Source: a virus (Duplodnaviria; Heunggongvirae; Uroviricota; Caudoviricetes). From it: 64,000 nucleotides of DNA. The notes below the pieces were generated by a model that saw nothing but the letters and a program-made list of their open reading frames with translations, made no database searches and was not told the DNA's origin. The stretch is taken from IMG/VR virus record IMGVR_UViG_2671180676_000004, positions 1 to 64,000 of that record. One strand, 5' to 3'. Positions 22,441 through 30,602 of this stretch are shown piece by piece (the stretch's first letter is position 1; each line of letters begins with the position of its first letter). The position numbers and the translations under genes are program-made.

Positions 22441-22525
22441 CTGCCGCAGGGAAATTTTCAGAAACGGCGAGGAACGTATTCATGAGCCGACGGGGAACGG
22501 CCAGGATTTTTTCGGGAAACGGCTG
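22441..22525. repeat. Second iteron-like block (GGGAAAcGGc-type repeats)
   Basis: cagggaaa, cagaaacggcg, aggaacg, ggggaacggcc, cgggaaacggctg. Confidence 0.4.
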
Positions 22526-22987
22526 CATTCGCCTTTATGTAGAAAAAACATCGGGAAGCTGGTGGAATCCAACCAGCGGTTGTCGGACAGGTGAGCGGGG
22601 AAAATTATGATGACTTTCGTCACCTGAGACATCCAGATTTCTTTCGTAGCATAATTACATACGTGATTAAGTGGTGTGATTATGTGAAAAATCACGCGCA
22701 CATAATACGCGAGCGGATACGGAACAAAACAAAATGCCGATCCGCGCCGACAAATAAACGCGGATCATAAAGCAAGACTAAAAGCCAATGATTAACCATA
22801 CTCTATAGCGCAATATAACGCGTTTTAAGCGCGTTAATGTGTTAAGTAATGGGTATGTACTGGTAAGGATATAAAAGCGCGTCTATGGCGTTATTTTGGC
22901 GCTTATTTTTATGTTGTTGGAGTGAGTTAAAGACAATAAAAAACGCGCTAATGATGGCGCGTTATGGTGGGAGTATTGGAAACGAAA

Positions 22988-23006
22988 AAAGCGCCCATAG
23001 TGGGCG
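22988..23006. terminator. Bidirectional hairpin (agcgccca-tag-tgggcgct)
   Basis: On the minus strand it is followed by TTTTTT, so likely terminates the minus-strand operon ending at 23014. Confidence 0.6.
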
Positions 23007-23013
23007 CTCGATT

Positions 23014-23244
23014 TTATTTGTGTAAACTGATTTTAAATCCCATTTCTACAAACGCTTTTAACATTAAAAATATATCAGCGTCGTTCACGTCTGCTTTTTT
23101 TCGCTCCTGGTCGCTCAATAAGTCAATTTTGCGCGTCGTTTCATCTATAAGCTCGACTGCGCGCCCAGCGTAACCAGCGATCCCAGCGATGCGATTAACA
23201 TAATATTCATTATGGACGTTAACGCCAGCGATAAGAACAAACAT
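23014..23244 (-). CDS. Hypothetical protein (76 aa)
   Basis: ORF in the AT-rich cassette. Confidence 0.4.
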   Translation of the reverse strand: MFVLIAGVNVHNEYYVNRIAGIAGYAGRAVELIDETTRKIDLLSDQERKKADVNDADIFLMLKAFVEMGFKISLHK

Positions 23245-23263
23245 GATTAAGCTCCTTAAAAAA

Positions 23264-23467
23264 TTAAATAGAATTTTGAAGTTTTCCGATTAATGCGCTT
23301 AAACGTAAGTATTCACGTTTACGCTTGCAATCTCGCTTGCTGTTAAGCAAATCAGAAAACGTAAAATTTAATTGGTCGCGTTGCGCGATCAAATCATCGA
23401 TTAATTCCAGTTTATAAGCGCGATACTTTGCGCGATATTCCGCGCGGATCTTGTCATAGCTGACCAT
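23264..23467 (-). CDS. Hypothetical protein (67 aa)
   Basis: ATG 23467 with SD AGGAG; track ORF trimmed because its upstream part overlaps the hairpin. Confidence 0.4.
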   Translation of the reverse strand: MVSYDKIRAEYRAKYRAYKLELIDDLIAQRDQLNFTFSDLLNSKRDCKRKREYLRLSALIGKLQNSI

Positions 23468-23488
23468 TTTTAAAGCTCCTTTAAAGCG

Positions 23489-23507
23489 CCCACTATGGGC
23501 GCTTGAT
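23489..23507. repeat. Inverted copy of the 22988-23006 hairpin
   Basis: agcgccca-cta-tgggcgct, reverse complement of the first copy. Confidence 0.5.
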
Positions 23508-23515
23508 TCCATTAA

Positions 23516-24166
23516 TTACGCTTTGAAAGCATCAGCTAAATAATTGTAGAAATCATTTTTAATGAAGCGATATTGCTGAGTACCAGCTTTCGCACTCCCA
23601 GCTCCTTTGACTTTTTCAACAAGTCCAAGACGTTCGCAAAGATTGATCAACTGGTTGGCTTGAGTATAGCCAGCGTCCAATTTAATTTCACACGCTTTTT
23701 TAGCTTCATTCATTAAATCGAAAACAGCGCCATTGGTGAACGTGTCGATCTCGTCGTTAATCATATCGATTAAAGCGAATACACGAGATCCAGACATATC
23801 AGCGATGGAATAAACGCATTTACCAGATTTAATTGATTTAACCAGATAAACCAGTTTTTCCAGAGAATAACTATTAGTCATTGCATCACGAAAAAATACT
23901 TCTGGCGCTTGTTTGCTTGCTTTAATCGCATAGTAGAAAACAGAGCATAATTTTTCGTCTTCTACTGCGTTTACGACGTTGTTGATGAAGTAAGCAAGTT
24001 TAGTGGTCGCAGCTTGCATATTTGCTTTGTCTGCTTTAGTGTGCGTACCATTTTTATAATGTTCGTTATATGTTTGAGTTGCCAGATCTGCTTTTTCGCG
24101 CAGTTCATCGGATACAATGGAAGCAGCTTCAATGATGGATTTTTTAGAAATGATAATGTTAGCCAT
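23516..24166 (-). CDS. Hypothetical protein (216 aa)
   Basis: ORF in AT-rich DNA; no recognisable motif. Confidence 0.5.
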   Translation of the reverse strand: MANIIISKKSIIEAASIVSDELREKADLATQTYNEHYKNGTHTKADKANMQAATTKLAYFINNVVNAVEDEKLCSVFYYAIKASKQAPEVFFRDAMTNSYSLEKLVYLVKSIKSGKCVYSIADMSGSRVFALIDMINDEIDTFTNGAVFDLMNEAKKACEIKLDAGYTQANQLINLCERLGLVEKVKGAGSAKAGTQQYRFIKNDFYNYLADAFKA

Positions 24167-24449
24167 GATAATTTTTCCTTATGTAAATTTAAAATTTATT
24201 GTCGTTAGCGTCTTCGCTTTCGACGAGTTCAATTATCGATACGCGAAAAAAGATTGCAAGTGTTTTTTTAAAATTTTTTGCAGGGATGAAAGTCCTAGAA
24301 ATAAAAGCGAGATCGTCGAAGGTGTTCCCTAAATAAATAATCGATTCCGGCTTTCGACCTTATATATATTTAGATTATTTGATTTATAGATATAAAGAAG
24401 TGATGTGAAAAATAATAACCGGACTTAGCCGGTTATTAACCTTATAGAT

Positions 24450-24758
24450 TTATTGAACAGACTCTACAGCCTTACGATTGGTGTCAAATAGCGCATCAAC
24501 GAACTGTGCCGATGACTCGCTAGATTCGCAATCCAACATTGCCCGTTCTTCATTTGCCACTTTCTTACACAGTTCCACATTCTCACCTATCGCTTTTCCT
24601 GCTTTTACGGCTGCCGAAAATTGATACATGCAAACTGATACATTCTGAGACGTTGAGCACACGTCATTCATCAGCGACTGAATGACAGGCTTATAGTCCA
24701 TTGCATTTGCCGCAACTGAGCAAAGTAAAAATAATGGTGGTAACAATATCGATTTCAT
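24450..24758 (-). CDS. Secreted Cys-containing small protein (102 aa)
   Basis: N-terminal signal peptide MKSILLPPLFLLCSVAANA; four later Cys. Confidence 0.5.
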   Translation of the reverse strand: MKSILLPPLFLLCSVAANAMDYKPVIQSLMNDVCSTSQNVSVCMYQFSAAVKAGKAIGENVELCKKVANEERAMLDCESSESSAQFVDALFDTNRKAVESVQ

Positions 24759-24761
24759 AAC

Positions 24762-25286
24762 TCAAAAAGGCAAAATTCGTTCAACCCAATCGAACAAAAC
24801 AACTATTTTTCTACCGTTCTCGACACGTAGTGTAACCTGACAAGCATCTGCGCCTGCTGACACCCCCTCAATTTCACGGCCATCCGCCATGTACACCCTT
24901 ATAGATTTGTTTGCTTTGTAGGCTTGGTTGCAAATTGCAAAAAAATCGCGGCGTGATGGCCGATTATCGACATAATCAGGGTGAACTGTTAGTCGACCTT
25001 TGAAATCGTGAGCGATACTGTCAACCACACCTGATTCAATTGTACTAATGCGTTCAAGTGGGAGCCTTATACGATTTTCTTTGTCAAAAGGGGCTGGGCA
25101 AAGGTCAACTTTGTTACGAGATGGCATGAGGCCATAAACGTACATGCAAAACGCCTGGCCATCTTCGAGAGTGACCCTTACAGGAATTTGTTCTCTGCGC
25201 CAGAACATCAGTAGTTTTTCAACGTTAGTGTAATCTCGCGGCCAGAGTTCAGCTTGGATACCGTAGGTAATATCTTTGGTTGTCAT
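24762..25286 (-). CDS. Hypothetical protein (174 aa)
   Basis: Start set at MTTKD to avoid overlap with the upstream lipoprotein gene. Confidence 0.45.
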   Translation of the reverse strand: MTTKDITYGIQAELWPRDYTNVEKLLMFWRREQIPVRVTLEDGQAFCMYVYGLMPSRNKVDLCPAPFDKENRIRLPLERISTIESGVVDSIAHDFKGRLTVHPDYVDNRPSRRDFFAICNQAYKANKSIRVYMADGREIEGVSAGADACQVTLRVENGRKIVVLFDWVERILPF

Positions 25287-25290
25287 GTCA

Positions 25291-25713
25291 TCACAGAGTT
25301 GTTGGCAGAATGTCGATGTCACCAGAATTGCTGGTGAACACCCTGAACGCTTTTGTGTCTCCATTCTTCAGAGTCGTTTCTCGCTCTTGACGAGCGGGGT
25401 TTAGAGCACATAAACCTGCACCTTCAAGAGATGCACCCACAATTAATTCTCCGGCATTTAAATGGAAAGTCGCTTTTTCGCCTGTAGCCAGTTTTGCGAC
25501 AGTTTCGCCGTTGATGAAAATGGAAGCATCACATCCAGCTCCTACAAAACCTGTGTCTCTCATTACCACCAACGTAGCTGGCGCTGCGCTTTGATACTTG
25601 AACACTTTGGCCTGCGGTGCTGGTTTGGCGTCATGGATTGATATTGGGCGTGATTGGCACGCGGTAAGCATCAACACTGGTAACGTTAGTAGAGGGAGAA
25701 GCGAGTATTTCAT
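25291..25713 (-). CDS. Putative lipoprotein (140 aa)
   Basis: Signal peptide with lipobox MKYSLLPLLTLPVLMLTAC. Confidence 0.5.
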   Translation of the reverse strand: MKYSLLPLLTLPVLMLTACQSRPISIHDAKPAPQAKVFKYQSAAPATLVVMRDTGFVGAGCDASIFINGETVAKLATGEKATFHLNAGELIVGASLEGAGLCALNPARQERETTLKNGDTKAFRVFTSNSGDIDILPTTL

Positions 25714-25781
25714 GATAGTTTTAGAACAGAAAGTGAACAGTATGGGAGACTTCATCTTTGTCTCCCTAATTGATAGCGTGA

Positions 25782-26060
25782 TTATTTTAATCTGCTTAAT
25801 AGCGTTTCGAGATCTTCCTTTGTCATATTAGAGTTCTCATAGATACGCATGATTTTCTCACGAGTCTTAGCGGAAGCCCCGACAGAAGATATAACCTTGT
25901 CAAAGTCGGCCATTGTCAATTGTTCCAGAATGGTATTTATGACTTCAGCCTTAGACATTTTGATATTTTTTTCTTTTAGTTTCACTTGAAACTTTCCAAG
26001 TTTGTCATTGGCCTTATCAGACAATGCTACCTGACAATAAGTTGTTTTCTTTTCGCTCAT
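25782..26060 (-). CDS. Hypothetical protein (92 aa)
   Basis: ORF 2 nt downstream of the helicase gene. Confidence 0.45.
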   Translation of the reverse strand: MSEKKTTYCQVALSDKANDKLGKFQVKLKEKNIKMSKAEVINTILEQLTMADFDKVISSVGASAKTREKIMRIYENSNMTKEDLETLLSRLK

Positions 26061-26062
26061 AA

Positions 26063-27622
26063 CTAATCTCGTTTCAGAACTCCAAAATCGAATGCTCCAT
26101 CAATAGGCAATACACCTTCTGCAAAGCCAGGTGTGGTGTCGATGATGTGTTTTCGCTCATAAGAGTGAGACAACAGGTATTTGTTGCTAATGTCAATGAA
26201 ATCAGTGATAAAACACACGTTTGCCTGATTTTTTTTGGCTCGTAAGCCACGACCGACACGCTGCCTCATTTCAACTTCTGCTTTCCCACCACCAGCAAGA
26301 ATGACCGCACCAACGCTTGGCACATCAACACCGACATCCAGAATAGTCGAGCCTATTAAAACATCTATTTCTCCAGACGCTAAACTGTTCAGCTTTGCTT
26401 GCCTTGTCGCCTGGTTAGATTCCCCATAGATGAAGTCAACTCTAAGGCCGGACTCTTTCATCATTTCCATCAGGATTTGCCCGTGGCGTTTAAGACGAAC
26501 CAGAGTCATACAATTGAGAGAATGTTGCTTATAGAGCAATGCTTCGCGAACAATGGCCTCGTTACGTCCCAAATTATACACGATCCCCAACTGATAAGCC
26601 TTTTGGTAGGCGGTGCTCATACCAACTCTAAAATTGAGGTGTTTGTTGGCAAGTTCGGCCTTGATTCTGGCCTCGTCTGGCTTGTAGGCAACTTTATGAT
26701 AAAGGAAGTACGGCTTTGCCAGAATGCCTCGATCAATCAGGTACTTTTCTGTGACTTTAATTTCAATTCGCCCGGCCACCGCCATCAGGCGCATGTTGGC
26801 TTCCGTCGAATCCTTCATGAACGGCGTGGCTGTAAGCGCCAGACGATAGTCTGCGTTCACACATAATCTGGCGATGTCATAGAAATTTGAGCCTGAAGAC
26901 TCATGCGCCTCTTCCAGAATAAGAAGAGAGACACTTGAAAGGAAGCGTTTCACCAACTCCCGACGTTTGAGGTGGTAGCTTTTCTTATCTGGTGTTGCAT
27001 CGCGTGGTGGTTCTTCGAGGAAACTTGCAAGAGTTTGAACTGTAGCGACGTTGATATGTCGTGATACCTGGAACTCACCCGAGCCAATGACTCCAACCTT
27101 TTGGTCTTTTAACCACGGTTCGCCATTTTCGGCGCGGTAGTCGATGGATCTCTGGAAGTTTTCGGCCATTTGAAACATCAGAACAGAGCGGGTTGTTAAA
27201 AATAATGTCATTCGACCGATACGTGCAGCTGCTTTGCAGGCAACGTTAGATTTCCCGCCACCAGTAGCGATCTGCGCAATCATCATTCCCTCTCGAACCA
27301 GTGTTTCCACAGTCTGATCCTGATACGCATAATCAGGATTGTATGGGAATGGGTTAACCGCAGGATTTGGTTTACCAAGCGCCGGGGCTTTGTCTTTGCG
27401 GATATGAACACATTTGATGCCCGCCTTGTTCAAGTTCGCCGCTACAGGCTTGGCAAAGCCAGCAGGGAACGAGTTTTTACTCCAGTTGAACATCGTGCTT
27501 GTGCCCTTCCAGTCGCCAGTCTCGACTTCGTAGCTCAACATCTGTTGCACCATTTGCTTTACCTTGTCATCTGCGCCAGAAATAAGCGCATTAACTGCGT
27601 TAGATACAATCCGAACAGTCAT
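26063..27622 (-). CDS. SF2 DEAD/DEAH-box-type helicase
   Basis: Motif I ATGGGKS, motif II LEEAHE, motif VI QRVGRGLR. Confidence 0.8.
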   Translation of the reverse strand: MTVRIVSNAVNALISGADDKVKQMVQQMLSYEVETGDWKGTSTMFNWSKNSFPAGFAKPVAANLNKAGIKCVHIRKDKAPALGKPNPAVNPFPYNPDYAYQDQTVETLVREGMMIAQIATGGGKSNVACKAAARIGRMTLFLTTRSVLMFQMAENFQRSIDYRAENGEPWLKDQKVGVIGSGEFQVSRHINVATVQTLASFLEEPPRDATPDKKSYHLKRRELVKRFLSSVSLLILEEAHESSGSNFYDIARLCVNADYRLALTATPFMKDSTEANMRLMAVAGRIEIKVTEKYLIDRGILAKPYFLYHKVAYKPDEARIKAELANKHLNFRVGMSTAYQKAYQLGIVYNLGRNEAIVREALLYKQHSLNCMTLVRLKRHGQILMEMMKESGLRVDFIYGESNQATRQAKLNSLASGEIDVLIGSTILDVGVDVPSVGAVILAGGGKAEVEMRQRVGRGLRAKKNQANVCFITDFIDISNKYLLSHSYERKHIIDTTPGFAEGVLPIDGAFDFGVLKRD

Positions 27623-27668
27623 AAACCTCTTTCCTTAGTGCCTTTTGTATGTTATTTGGCTATTATAA

Positions 27669-27687
27669 TAAGTAAGTGATTACTTAG
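27669..27687. repeat. Motif B copy (taagtaagtgattacttag)
   Basis: In the divergent region between the helicase and ParB-like operons. Confidence 0.5.
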
Positions 27688-27704
27688 TGGATTGTAGCAA
27701 TAAA

Positions 27705-28385
27705 ATGGATGTAAAAATCACGATTTTGCAGGTTGATGTTGCCAACCTTCGCCCGAATACCTGGAACACCAATTCGGTTGGTGCGCAGAATTTTGAAAAA
27801 CTGAAAGGTTCTATCGAAAAATTGGGCTTTTTTAAGCCAATTTTGGCTCGTGAACTTGAAGATGGATTTTTTGAAATCCTCGGCGGCGAACATCGCTGGC
27901 GTGCTGCTATTGAGCAAGGAATTTCAACGGTTCCGGTGCTTTCTGTGGGCAAAATTAGCGATGTCGTAGCTAAACAGATGTCACTGGTGGACAACGAGCG
28001 ATACGGTGAAGACGACCAAATCGCATTGCAACGCTTCATTGAAGAAATTCAGTCAGAACTTGACTATCAACTGTCTGAAATCGCCCCGTATGACGACGAA
28101 ATCTCGATGGTTTTAGCAAAAGAGGCGGCAATCGACCTTGAAGCACTGGAGGCGTTGTCTCGTGGTAGTGATGAGCCTGTCGATACCGACAAACGAGAGA
28201 AAACCGAACGTGTGGGTGCGGAACATCAGACCATGCGCTTCAAAGTAACTTTCGATGCGTCAGATCGTGTTGCAGAAACCATAAAAAACATCATCAAAGA
28301 GCAGGCTATTAACACCGGTAATGAAATGGAGAACGCTGGTGAGGCTCTGGTGTGGCTGGTCGACTACTACAAGGAGCGTATGTAA
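27705..28385 (+). CDS. ParB/Srx-like nuclease-domain protein
   Basis: ParB N-domain motif GGEHRWRAA. Confidence 0.7.
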   Translation: MDVKITILQVDVANLRPNTWNTNSVGAQNFEKLKGSIEKLGFFKPILARELEDGFFEILGGEHRWRAAIEQGISTVPVLSVGKISDVVAKQMSLVDNERYGEDDQIALQRFIEEIQSELDYQLSEIAPYDDEISMVLAKEAAIDLEALEALSRGSDEPVDTDKREKTERVGAEHQTMRFKVTFDASDRVAETIKNIIKEQAINTGNEMENAGEALVWLVDYYKERM

Positions 28386-29053
28386 TGACCAAAAAGTTTG
28401 AAATCGTATATCGCGACCCGGCAGATCTTATTCCCTATGAGATGAATGCCAAAAAGCATGATGAACAGCAGATCCGAGATCTGGCCGCAGCCATTAAAAA
28501 GCGCGGATTTGACCAGCCAATTACGGTCGATAAGAACGACGTAATTATTACTGGCCACGGCCGCCGTGAGGCTGCAATTTTTGCTGGACTTGAGCGCGTA
28601 CCGGTTATTGTTCGCGATGATCTCAGTGATGACGAGGTTCGTGCGAAGCGCCTTGAAGATAACCGACTTGCCAGCATTGATTACGATGCAATTAAGCTAC
28701 AGAAAGAGCTTGAGTCGCTTGTTCTGGACGATATCGAGGTTTTCGGCTTTGAAGAGCGTGAGTTGAATGTTCTCGTTGGCAGTATGACAGAAGAAATGGA
28801 CACCGACTCGCTAGTTATCGATCTTGGCGAAGAAACTAAACGACAGAAGGATGAACACACCGAGATCAGTCGTGAAGTTGCAGCGGAAGAAGTACGTGTT
28901 GTCGACGTATTGGGCTTTAAAACGCTCCCTGCTGGCTCTGCCATTGTTGTTGGTGATTTGCTTGCCCATATGGAAGAAATGACGGGAGAAAGCGGGGTAG
29001 ACGCATTTGTGGCATATGCGGAGAAGATCTCTTCCGGGGAGATGGCTGCATGA
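28385..29053 (+). CDS. ParB/Srx-like domain protein (paralogue)
   Basis: Motif TGHGRREAA; ATG overlaps the upstream stop (TAATG); SD AAGGAG. Confidence 0.7.
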   Translation: MTKKFEIVYRDPADLIPYEMNAKKHDEQQIRDLAAAIKKRGFDQPITVDKNDVIITGHGRREAAIFAGLERVPVIVRDDLSDDEVRAKRLEDNRLASIDYDAIKLQKELESLVLDDIEVFGFEERELNVLVGSMTEEMDTDSLVIDLGEETKRQKDEHTEISREVAAEEVRVVDVLGFKTLPAGSAIVVGDLLAHMEEMTGESGVDAFVAYAEKISSGEMAA

Positions 29054-29715
29054 GCAAATACATCATCAACATATCGTTTCAGACACGCGTAAATAAAACC
29101 ACGCGCACGTTGGAAATCGCTGAGTCGTTCGGGCTTGGCCTGGACGAAAAAGAGTGGACGCTTTACGACAATCTGGAGCTGGAAGTGAAGCAGGGCGATG
29201 TGGTGTACATCACCGGCCAATCCGGTTCCGGCAAATCCGTTGTGCTGCGCGAGTTGCAACGACAGATGAAGGATGAAGGGCTGTCTGTAGCCTCCATCGA
29301 TGATTTTACCTTCGATAATGAGGTTAACGTCATCGATCAGTTGGGCAAAACGACCAGTGATGCGCTTGGGTTGTTATCTATGGCTGGTCTGAACGATGCA
29401 TATCTGTTTGTTCGCAAGCCTTCTGAAATGTCAGACGGCCAGAAATATCGTCTCAAGATTGCCAAACTGATTGAGTCAGGCGCTAAAGTGTGGGCTGCTG
29501 ACGAGTTCGGCGCTGTTCTCGACCGTGTAACCGCTCAGGTTGTGGCGTCTAACCTCCAGCGTGCCGCGCGAAAGGTTGGTGCGACGGTAATGGTGGCGAC
29601 GACTCACGAAGACCTGAAGAACGCGCTGCGCCCGGATATGCAGATCACCAAGCACTACAAAGAACGCGTGAAGGTGGAATATCACAATGGTAGTCATGAT
29701 GAGGTCCATTCATGA
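29050..29715 (+). CDS. ABC-type ATPase (nucleotide-binding-domain-like)
   Basis: Walker A GQSGSGKS, signature-like SDGQKYRL, Walker B VWAADEF, H-loop ATTHE; ATGA overlap. Confidence 0.65.
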   Translation: MSKYIINISFQTRVNKTTRTLEIAESFGLGLDEKEWTLYDNLELEVKQGDVVYITGQSGSGKSVVLRELQRQMKDEGLSVASIDDFTFDNEVNVIDQLGKTTSDALGLLSMAGLNDAYLFVRKPSEMSDGQKYRLKIAKLIESGAKVWAADEFGAVLDRVTAQVVASNLQRAARKVGATVMVATTHEDLKNALRPDMQITKHYKERVKVEYHNGSHDEVHS

Positions 29716-30602
29716 CGGACATCATCATTAAACGCTACCGCCCTGAAGAGTTTCCGCGTCATCTGGACTTTCTGGAGCGAATGACTGTTACAAAGGGAAC
29801 TGTAGAGGACTGGCACGCTCTTAAGTCGCTTCACTACAAAACAGACGGCAAACCTTTCGCGCCAACTTACTATCGCTGCGAACTTGATGACCGTCTGGTG
29901 GGCGTCGTGGTTATGGCTTACCCGAAACTACTGTTGGCACCTCGCCACCGCATGTTTCCTAAGTTGAAACCAACCACTAATACCACCGTGGCTAACCAGT
30001 ACTGGGGTCGGTACGTGAATAACAACTTTGCGGTGATCAGTCGCTCAGTTGTGGATACTCAGTATCGTGGCGTAGGCGTCTCTTATCGAATGATTAACCT
30101 GGTTAGCAGGATGCATGACCGGCCAATCATTGAGATCCAGTCCTCGATGAGCAAATACAATCCCTTCGCCATGAAAGCAGGGTTTAAGTTCATCCGCCCT
30201 GAGCGACCGAAGAGCTATGAAAGTGCACTGCGTGTATTCCAGCGCCATTTTCGTTCCGACCCGGGTGATAACGAGGCGATCGTCAAAGAGTTGTTCGCAA
30301 TGAGCGAGTCTCGTCGTCGCCGTGCACTGCGTGATCTGGTGGCGGACTACCATAAGAACAGTTCCCTGGCAAAAGCTGGGCGGAATCGTGGCACGACGAT
30401 TCAGGACATTGCCGACAGTCTGGTGGACGAGGCCAGCATTGTGAAGTTGCTCAAGGACATTCACAACCTGAGCTTTACGTCTCCGTTGTATGGGGTGTAT
30501 CGAAACCCTGACTTTGGTCGTCGACTGCCTGACACGCTGCCACTGCTGGCATTCGACAAACAACCTTTGGATAAACCGTTAGAAATTGCTTTACCGGCAT
30601 AA
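29712..30602 (+). CDS. GNAT-fold acetyltransferase-like protein with C-terminal extension
   Basis: GNAT motif A-like QYRGVGVSYRMI and motif B-like NPFAMKAGFKFI. Confidence 0.4.
   Translation: MTDIIIKRYRPEEFPRHLDFLERMTVTKGTVEDWHALKSLHYKTDGKPFAPTYYRCELDDRLVGVVVMAYPKLLLAPRHRMFPKLKPTTNTTVANQYWGRYVNNNFAVISRSVVDTQYRGVGVSYRMINLVSRMHDRPIIEIQSSMSKYNPFAMKAGFKFIRPERPKSYESALRVFQRHFRSDPGDNEAIVKELFAMSESRRRRALRDLVADYHKNSSLAKAGRNRGTTIQDIADSLVDEASIVKLLKDIHNLSFTSPLYGVYRNPDFGRRLPDTLPLLAFDKQPLDKPLEIALPA

Follow-up and report, generated by a model that had tools for sequence, protein, structure and literature searches.

The window analysed here, positions 1 to 64,000 (64,000 nucleotides, nt) of the IMG/VR virus record IMGVR_UViG_2671180676_000004, can be assigned from its sequence to a phage-plasmid of Escherichia coli of the SSU5/pHCM2/pMT1 type. 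It carries on the minus strand a string of five genes headed by a superfamily 2 (SF2) helicase, and we think it probable, though with some reserve, that this string combines a fixed frame with two cargo slots. The frame would consist of the helicase, a protein of 92 amino acids (aa), a 174-aa protein of the FljA family and a terminator. Slot 1, between the 92-aa and FljA-like genes, would be occupied here by an outer-membrane lipoprotein, and slot 2, between the stop codon of the FljA-like gene and the terminator, by a periplasmic protein with four cysteines. The FljA-like protein would be an RNA-binding repressor, with a target that is perhaps not flagellin, and the two exported proteins would be mobile morons acting in the envelope.

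Organization of the gene string

The features of the region, in the direction of transcription, are the following.

26063-27622, minus strand: SF2 helicase (519 aa), first gene of the string
25782-26060, minus strand: 92-aa protein, predicted cytoplasmic, phrog_1466; position after the helicase conserved
25291-25755, minus strand: accessory lipoprotein of the outer-membrane type (154 aa, or 140 aa from the ATG at 25713), with a lipobox, phrog_890
24762-25286, minus strand: 174-aa FljA-family protein (Flag1_repress, PF03614), conserved core gene, predicted not to be exported
24450-24758, minus strand: accessory 102-aa protein, predicted Sec-type secreted (periplasmic), with a signal peptide and four mature Cys, phrog_9536
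24413-24438, minus strand: intrinsic terminator closing the string (10-bp stem, 6-nt loop, T-run)
24167-24412, minus strand: conserved stretch between genes; contains a promoter-like site (24232-24259) and, in the leader of the 216-aa gene, a hairpin (24201-24224)
23516-24166, minus strand: 216-aa protein, next separate gene, downstream of the terminator

The sequence-only reading of this region had described, behind an SF2 helicase on the minus strand, a 92-aa protein, a lipoprotein, a 174-aa protein and a secreted Cys-containing protein, and the five open reading frames (ORFs) are indeed found at the positions listed. The four small ones are real genes, not chance ORFs, since all gave strong PHROG matches (E-values from 5e-46 to 2e-100). 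From the helicase to the 102-aa gene, the successive intergenic gaps are of 2, 26, 4 and 3 nt. A GGGAGA ribosome-binding site precedes the lipoprotein gene; the 174-aa and 102-aa genes are without a good Shine-Dalgarno sequence, which fits translational coupling. The terminator hairpin and its T-run (24438-24413) lie directly 3' of the last stop codon and are kept in seven lineages; in the one that diverges most, changes in the stem compensate each other. Promoter-like sites inside the string showed no excess (15 versus 11.3 ± 3.3 in shuffled sequence). Given the spacing and the single terminator, the string from the helicase to the 102-aa gene is probably polycistronic. A 200-aa ORF called mechanically from position 25364 was rejected in favour of the 174-aa start, as it overlaps the lipoprotein gene and the homologues give it no support.

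The element and its mosaic relatives

The 4.4-kb region around the helicase string was 100% identical to the E. coli plasmid pUTAK-6-1 (111 kb), 98% identical to 'Escherichia phage CMS-2020a' and 94% to phage Cyrano (pLF82); for Salmonella phage SSU5, nucleotide identity was 79.6% over 78% of the region. Among the 246 complete E. coli genomes with a match, 96 had at least 80% of the region covered, and it was plasmid-borne every time. A ParA-like partition gene, together with terminase, portal and tail genes, is present in the window; RepB, dnaE, a DnaB-like helicase, ligase, RecA and nrdAB are encoded on the remainder of the plasmid. The assignment to the SSU5/pHCM2 type follows from this association of backbone similarity with partition, structural and RepB/replisome genes. 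SSU5, pHCM2, pMT1 and Cyrano have in common with it both the backbone and the helicase/92-aa/FljA-like/216-aa frame. They differ in the cargo: the lipoprotein without the secreted protein is found in SSU5 and pMT1, whereas Cyrano has neither, but other genes and a different FljA-like allele.

The comparison with Cyrano locates the changes. Identity was 97.5% over a stretch that begins with the ParB genes, takes in the helicase and ends at position 25807, and the mosaic junction lies near that point, inside the 3' end of the 92-aa gene. Beyond it, the content of the lipoprotein slot was unrelated, the FljA-like gene was 77.7% identical and the 102-aa gene was absent, after which identity rose again to 89-97%. 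In two Klebsiella plasmids the flanks were 98% identical and the FljA-like gene 69.7%. Across the relatives, the upstream slot held the lipoprotein or other genes (sometimes on the opposite strand), or was empty; the downstream slot held the 102-aa gene or was empty. Compared with the approximately 830 PLSDB plasmids that have the helicase and the FljA-like gene, the lipoprotein was found on 421 (about half of the relatives) and the secreted protein on 259 (approximately 30%). Because of these patchy counts, and because close relatives have unrelated genes or nothing in the same places, the lipoprotein and the secreted protein are classified, on comparative grounds, as accessory, swappable cargo flanking the FljA-like gene. 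In that respect, the region is a mosaic accessory tail of an ordinary sort, on a phage-plasmid backbone that is well known. The earlier suggestion of exported products within a helicase operon thus stands for two of the four small proteins, which appear as accessory cargo and not as a fixed part of the operon.

The 174-aa protein: family and predicted fold

Residues 5-171 of the 174-aa protein aligned with positions 1-170 of the 170-position profile PF03614 (repressor of phase-1 flagellin), with an E-value of 1.5e-84 and 282.4 bits against a cut-off of 24; the Pfam scan gave a weak additional match to the Hfq profile. An exhaustive HMMER scan of 1.84 billion representative proteins retrieved only 26 representatives of the family. 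One of them, P0136, bears the NCBI name 'phase 1 flagellin gene repressor FljA' (Salmonella) and is 36% identical to the 174-aa protein over the full length (E 1.2e-25); its cluster mate P0156 is encoded directly after flagellin and resolvase genes, i.e. in a classical hin-fljB-fljA locus. Two other FljA-like members, P0074 (from a chromosome-sized contig) and P0135, are in phage-like contexts without a flagellin gene. As a side observation, the two Salmonella contigs with a hin-fljB-fljA locus (L010 and L011) have the hin/resolvase gene in opposite orientations relative to fljB, so that both states of the invertible switch were caught in public assemblies.

An AlphaFold model, built from 24 homologues, reached a mean predicted local distance difference test score (pLDDT) of 90.5 and a predicted template modelling score (pTM) of 0.86. 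It shows two consecutive units, each starting with a helix that leads into a five-stranded antiparallel sheet with a strong bend. According to this model, the protein is a tandem Sm/Hfq-like protein with a predicted RNA-binding fold, which fits the block of fliC translation by FljA, as cited in PMC2652032. By analogy with FljA, it most likely works by binding RNA and repressing translation: the protein would bind an mRNA leader and block its translation. The resemblance to Hfq and other Sm-like proteins has its limits, since here two Sm-like domains are in one chain and the Hfq sequence motifs are not conserved; furthermore, FljA is a specific repressor and not a general RNA chaperone. A trimer of the tandem-Sm protein could, we infer, mimic the Hfq hexamer. 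A structure search of BFVD returned only single-domain Sm-like phage proteins and poor long alignments, and a sequence search of the PDB gave no meaningful match. Neither a hydrophobic segment nor a lipobox was found in the 174-aa protein, which is therefore predicted to be cytoplasmic and not an envelope protein. Our literature search brought up no study of what the FljA-like gene does in SSU5, pHCM2 or pMT1, and none that connects FljA with the Sm fold.

The likeness to Salmonella enterica FljA extends to the full length of PF03614, to three common motifs (DITYG..AE.WPRDY, PSRRDFF.IC and FDWV.RI) and to size (179 aa versus 174 aa here). The genetic context is different. In Salmonella, fljBA is under the control of a Hin-invertible promoter; here, there is no adjacent flagellin or invertase gene and the neighbourhood is the helicase string. 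When FljB was used as a tblastn query against 108.6 kb of the 111.5-kb plasmid (the window plus 44.6 kb), no flagellin was found; in the same 108.6 kb, Hin gave one 27-residue match at chance level (E 0.06). No flagellin gene is annotated on the pUTAK-6-1 remainder either. The 174-aa gene is accordingly not one that is co-transcribed with fljB under an invertible promoter (hin or pinR). FljA-family genes are known on other mobile DNA, namely fljA(z66) on the linear Salmonella Typhi plasmid pBSSB1 and those of the E. coli flk-type/fljAB-pinR islets, but these are 67-98% identical to canonical FljA and always accompany a flagellin gene, the expression of which they favour (PMC2652032), whereas the present gene stands alone.

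Is flagellin the target?

The family name calls for one explanation, which we regard as improbable: the FljA-like protein would bind the leader of the host fliC mRNA and shut off flagellin, either in the lysogen or during lytic growth. In the first form, lysogenic conversion would lead to less motility, less stimulation of TLR5 and protection from flagellotropic phages; in the second, host shut-off would save resources. The full-length membership in the FljA family speaks for it, as do two precedents of mobile FljA-type proteins that repress fliC: fljA(z66) on pBSSB1 (PMC2652032) and an acquired fljAB-pinR island (bioRxiv 10.1101/2025.10.27.684867). In addition, several of the hosts (E. coli, Salmonella, Enterobacter, Citrobacter) have flagella and conserve the fliC leader, and fliC mRNA would be a candidate target in flagellated hosts such as E. 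coli. The precedents have to be set against an identity to the proven FljA of just 36% and against the missing partner flagellin gene.

The distribution of the gene bears on the same question. A tblastn search found the FljA-like gene on 835 PLSDB plasmids, full length in 826; 797 of the 835 were typed as non-mobilizable, and among the matches listed most were of approximately 100-120 kb. The numbers of plasmids with the helicase and with the FljA-like gene were nearly equal in each genus: 346 and 345 for Klebsiella, 228 and 229 for Escherichia, 92 and 92 for Enterobacter, 62 and 62 for Yersinia, the last being all Yersinia pestis plasmids. No FljA-like match was obtained in the Acinetobacter and Aeromonas records that have a related helicase. 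In SSU5, pMT1, Cyrano and three Klebsiella lineages, the gene occupies the same position, between the helicase/92-aa pair and the 216-aa gene. Wherever synonymous divergence was unsaturated, the ratio of nonsynonymous to synonymous substitution rates (dN/dS) was 0.08-0.16, indicating purifying selection. K. pneumoniae and Y. pestis are not known to make flagella, and yet the gene is intact, at about one per helicase, on 345 Klebsiella and 62 Y. pestis plasmids; the conservation of the gene on elements of such hosts is another difference from Salmonella fljA. For an exact 20-mer from the start of fliC, no Klebsiella genome was among the matches listed, which is only a weak check.

The alleles are also difficult to reconcile with a flagellin target. 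Among 80 IMG/VR loci, the backbones with 216-aa proteins of at least 97% identity had FljA-like alleles of 100, 95-98, 78-79, 77 and 67% identity. E. coli backbones with identities of 97% or more thus carry at least four divergent alleles (67-100%), even though the E. coli/Shigella fliC leaders examined differ at just a few positions. Lastly, S. Typhi CT18, the host of pHCM2, expresses the H:d flagellin and E. coli LF82, the host of Cyrano, is flagellated; flagellin is therefore not silenced in these two strains, at least in lysogeny. The intact gene in Klebsiella and Y. pestis, the lack of a partner flagellin and the divergence of the alleles together suggest that the main target is other than flagellin. 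They suggest, at least, that flagellin is not the only target of the FljA-like protein, and perhaps not the main one; the latter would be a transcript of the phage-plasmid or another transcript of the host.

Search for a cognate RNA target

If the target is not flagellin, the FljA-like protein could regulate the phage-plasmid itself, for example as a translational repressor of early or maintenance genes in a role similar to that of T4 RegA, with Salmonella FljA as a domesticated copy. We hold this to be a doubtful explanation, although it has several points in its favour. The gene is core and at a fixed position in all enterobacterial SSU5-like lineages, regardless of whether the host has flagella, and it is under purifying selection. 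The family, with its 26 representatives, is tiny and consists mostly of phage-plasmid members, and the chromosomal fljBA-hin locus itself looks mobile, the invertase being found in both orientations. On the other side, no cognate operator was found, and the Acinetobacter and Aeromonas records show that a related helicase can occur without a FljA-like match.

The one conserved structured leader near the string is in the intergenic region downstream of it (24167-24449), which is strikingly block-conserved even in comparison with a lineage whose proteins are just 36-49% identical. The region contains, in the sense (minus) orientation, three copies of [CA]TATAAGG, the third at the ribosome-binding site, as well as the invariant sequence ATTTATTTAGGnAACACCTTC and a promoter-like TTGCAA-16-GATAAT at 24232-24259. 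The palindrome at 24201-24224, in the leader, has one compensatory pair (AU in 20 sequences, GC in 4) and could be an RNA hairpin or a DNA operator. As the operator of the FljA-like protein it was not supported: it is unchanged in elements with FljA-like alleles of 83, 67, 66 and 64% identity, it also occurs in a lineage where the 1.5 kb preceding the 216-aa gene gave no FljA-like match, and its covariation is limited to the one pair. An Rfam scan of 22500-28000 returned matches at chance level only. For the fliC leader, sequences were taken from E. coli, Salmonella, Enterobacter and Leclercia genomes; their best match in the window was 12 nt long and was equalled by 94% of shuffled queries, so that the window offers no candidate for a fliC-leader-like operator.

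Our preferred reading, a fixed frame with a FljA-family repressor and two cargo slots, has to be weighed against several of these results and some others. A hairpin that stays constant across the alleles and persists in a lineage with no FljA-like match in the 1.5 kb before the 216-aa gene is not the cognate operator, and no operator resembling the fliC leader was retrieved from the window. The argument from non-flagellated hosts is indirect, because elements that hop between hosts might keep a gene directed at flagellin. In Cyrano and in one Klebsiella lineage, a gene of the opposite strand lies between the helicase and the FljA-like gene, which must therefore be able to use its own promoter; the operon reading may thus hold only for the present gene arrangement. 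All these points weigh against the proposed scheme.

Tentatively, the scheme can be extended to the family as a whole. At its root, the FljA family may have consisted of tandem Sm/Hfq-like repressors of phage-plasmids, with allelic specificities and with a non-flagellin target that would be a transcript of the phage-plasmid, a host RNA or a defence component; Salmonella FljA would then be a domesticated offshoot. The odds are against this extension.

The exported cargo: lipoprotein and 102-aa protein

Signal-peptide and lipobox checks on the four small proteins, which were the means proposed at the outset for verifying their export, revealed a lipobox in the lipoprotein and a Sec signal in the 102-aa protein, and neither in the 92-aa and 174-aa proteins. 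In the 154-aa form of the lipoprotein, the lipobox LTAC occupies residues 30-33, after a hydrophobic stretch, with Gln at +2. Its Cys is invariant in 15 homologues, which have two further conserved Cys, and it is predicted to be the first residue of the mature protein. The annotated start is at 25755 (154 aa), while most relatives start at the equivalent of 25713 (140 aa). The protein matched phrog_890, 'lipoprotein', with an E-value of 1e-51. A match to a domain of unknown function (DUF2846) remained below threshold (18 bits versus a cut-off of 34.3), and 10 of the 15 homologues gave similarly weak matches (best E 9e-4). The AlphaFold2 model (pLDDT 57.9) was too poor for a fold search, and a profile search of PDB sequences was without match.

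Homologues of the lipoprotein were found in 58 records of phages infecting E. coli, Pseudomonas or Vibrio, among them lambdoid phages that have the gene in their tail modules. In mEp390, the homologue, which the annotators of that phage had likened to the pMT1 lipoprotein, is between a minor tail protein gene (HK97 gp19-like) and a tail assembly gene, just before the central tail fibre gene; a linear N15-like phage-plasmid of Klebsiella has it at the equivalent position, and HK639 has it in a moron cluster together with a toxin. To judge from this distribution, members of the family travel among phages as morons. Genes of receptor-blocking lipoproteins, of which Cor and Llp are examples, are typically located beside tail-tip or central tail fibre genes. 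Like Cor (T1, phi80, N15) and Llp (T5), the present protein is a small accessory phage lipoprotein of the outer-membrane type, some of whose homologues adjoin tail-tip or receptor-binding genes; unlike them, it is larger (approximately 121 mature residues), and no sequence similarity to them was detected. By analogy, receptor masking or superinfection exclusion would be its most plausible role.

The signal peptide of the 102-aa protein is predicted to be MKSILLPPLFLLCSVAANA, followed by MD at the start of the mature part. Its call is based on a heuristic check of the Sec criteria: the N-terminus, MK-SILLPPLFLLCSVA-ANA and then MD, has positive charge, a hydrophobic core and an A-x-A motif. The homologues keep the MK, the hydrophobic core and a terminal ANA, VSA or ASA. 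The RefSeq start, a TTG at 24746 (98 aa), drops the Lys of the signal peptide; the homologues support the ATG at 24758. Cys34, Cys43 and Cys64 are invariant in the homologues, and the fourth Cys nearly so. The protein matched phrog_9536 (E 6e-55) and had no Pfam, meaningful PDB or defence-model match. It is confined to SSU5-like elements and is absent from SSU5 itself, pMT1 and Cyrano; a Klebsiella lineage that has diverged strongly still has, directly behind its FljA-like gene, a counterpart with identical spacing of the Cys residues.

The sequence-only reading had pointed to superinfection exclusion or envelope modification, by factors of the resident element, as the function of exported proteins of this kind. 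Taken for the lipoprotein and the secreted protein together, this is a possibility to which we give little weight. It agrees with the conserved export signals of both proteins and with their patchy, moron-typical occurrence as accessory cargo; the proximity of lipoprotein homologues to central tail fibre genes (in mEp390 and the N15-like element of Klebsiella) and to the moron cluster of HK639 also points that way, but is circumstantial. It is weakened by the annotation, since no PHROG annotated as exclusion was matched (the PHROGs give only 'lipoprotein' and 'unknown function' families), PADLOC had no match for the lipoprotein, the 174-aa or the 102-aa protein, the sole Pfam hint is the sub-threshold DUF2846 and the structure model of the lipoprotein is poor. 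Moreover, the lipoprotein is carried by the virulent phage SSU5, which is unexpected for a gene that would only protect lysogens, even if SSU5 is of temperate stock.

The helicase, the 92-aa protein and neighbouring genes

The helicase matches the Pfam families ResIII, DEAD and Helicase_C, and phrog_16 with an E-value of 7e-94; its identity to the counterparts in SSU5, pMT1 and the Klebsiella relatives is 91-92%. Its best match in the defence libraries was PbeA (E 7e-23), with a weak match to the Dnd restriction helicase. By these matches, it is an SF2 helicase of the UvsW/XPB/PbeA-like (DEAD/DEAH) kind. The designation of the string as a replication operon, made in the sequence-only reading, is doubtful, since the replisome genes (dnaE, DnaB-like helicase, ligase, nrdAB, together with RepB) are located elsewhere on the plasmid and the SF2 helicase is UvsW/XPB/PbeA-like. 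The helicase gene is transcribed divergently from two ParB/Srx-like genes, an ABC-type ATPase gene and the gene of a 296-aa protein, which bears elsewhere the annotation of an ATPase-acetyltransferase fusion. The conserved cluster that they form (26063-30602) may be a module for DNA modification or anti-defence and not for replication.

The 92-aa protein matched phrog_1466 (E 5e-46) and was present in all the relatives examined, with 35-86% identity: it evolves fast despite its conserved position. Pfam and NCBIfam scans gave no match, PADLOC just two at chance level (E 0.006-0.008) and a PDB sequence search none that was meaningful; neither a hydrophobic segment nor a lipobox was found. NCBIfam gave nothing for the other three small proteins either. 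By eye, in the 92-aa protein, the N-terminus looks like strand-helix-helix, i.e. a ribbon-helix-helix-like DNA-binding motif, for which the profile scans gave no support.

A few oddities were seen in positions 1-44580 of pUTAK-6-1, outside the window. There, dfrA51 (trimethoprim resistance) adjoins the thymidylate synthase and nrdAB genes. The same segment has four tRNA genes, an AbiGi-like gene and a tyrosine recombinase gene, together with frameshifted 5'-3' exonuclease and CobT-like genes, both annotated as pseudogenes.

Significance

Phage-plasmids of the SSU5/pHCM2/pMT1 type are common in clinical E. coli, Klebsiella, Salmonella Typhi and Yersinia pestis, and the helicase or the FljA-like gene is found on more than 800 PLSDB plasmids. 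The exported cargo appears to be made of ordinary morons, of interest mainly as candidates for phage-phage exclusion in phage therapy. The feature of wider interest is the FljA-family protein, predicted to be of the tandem-Sm type, which is orphan, core and allelically diverse, and which is kept where flagellin is lacking. If it does silence flagellin, the hosts that acquire these elements would be altered in motility, serotyping, innate immune recognition and sensitivity to flagellotropic phages. If, on the contrary, its target is another RNA, it would be a phage-encoded Sm-like translational regulator, so far unstudied, and 'repressor of phase-1 flagellin' would be a misnomer for many hundreds of genes on Klebsiella, Yersinia and E. 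coli plasmids; it would then also provide a clue to the origin of the phase-variation repressor of Salmonella.

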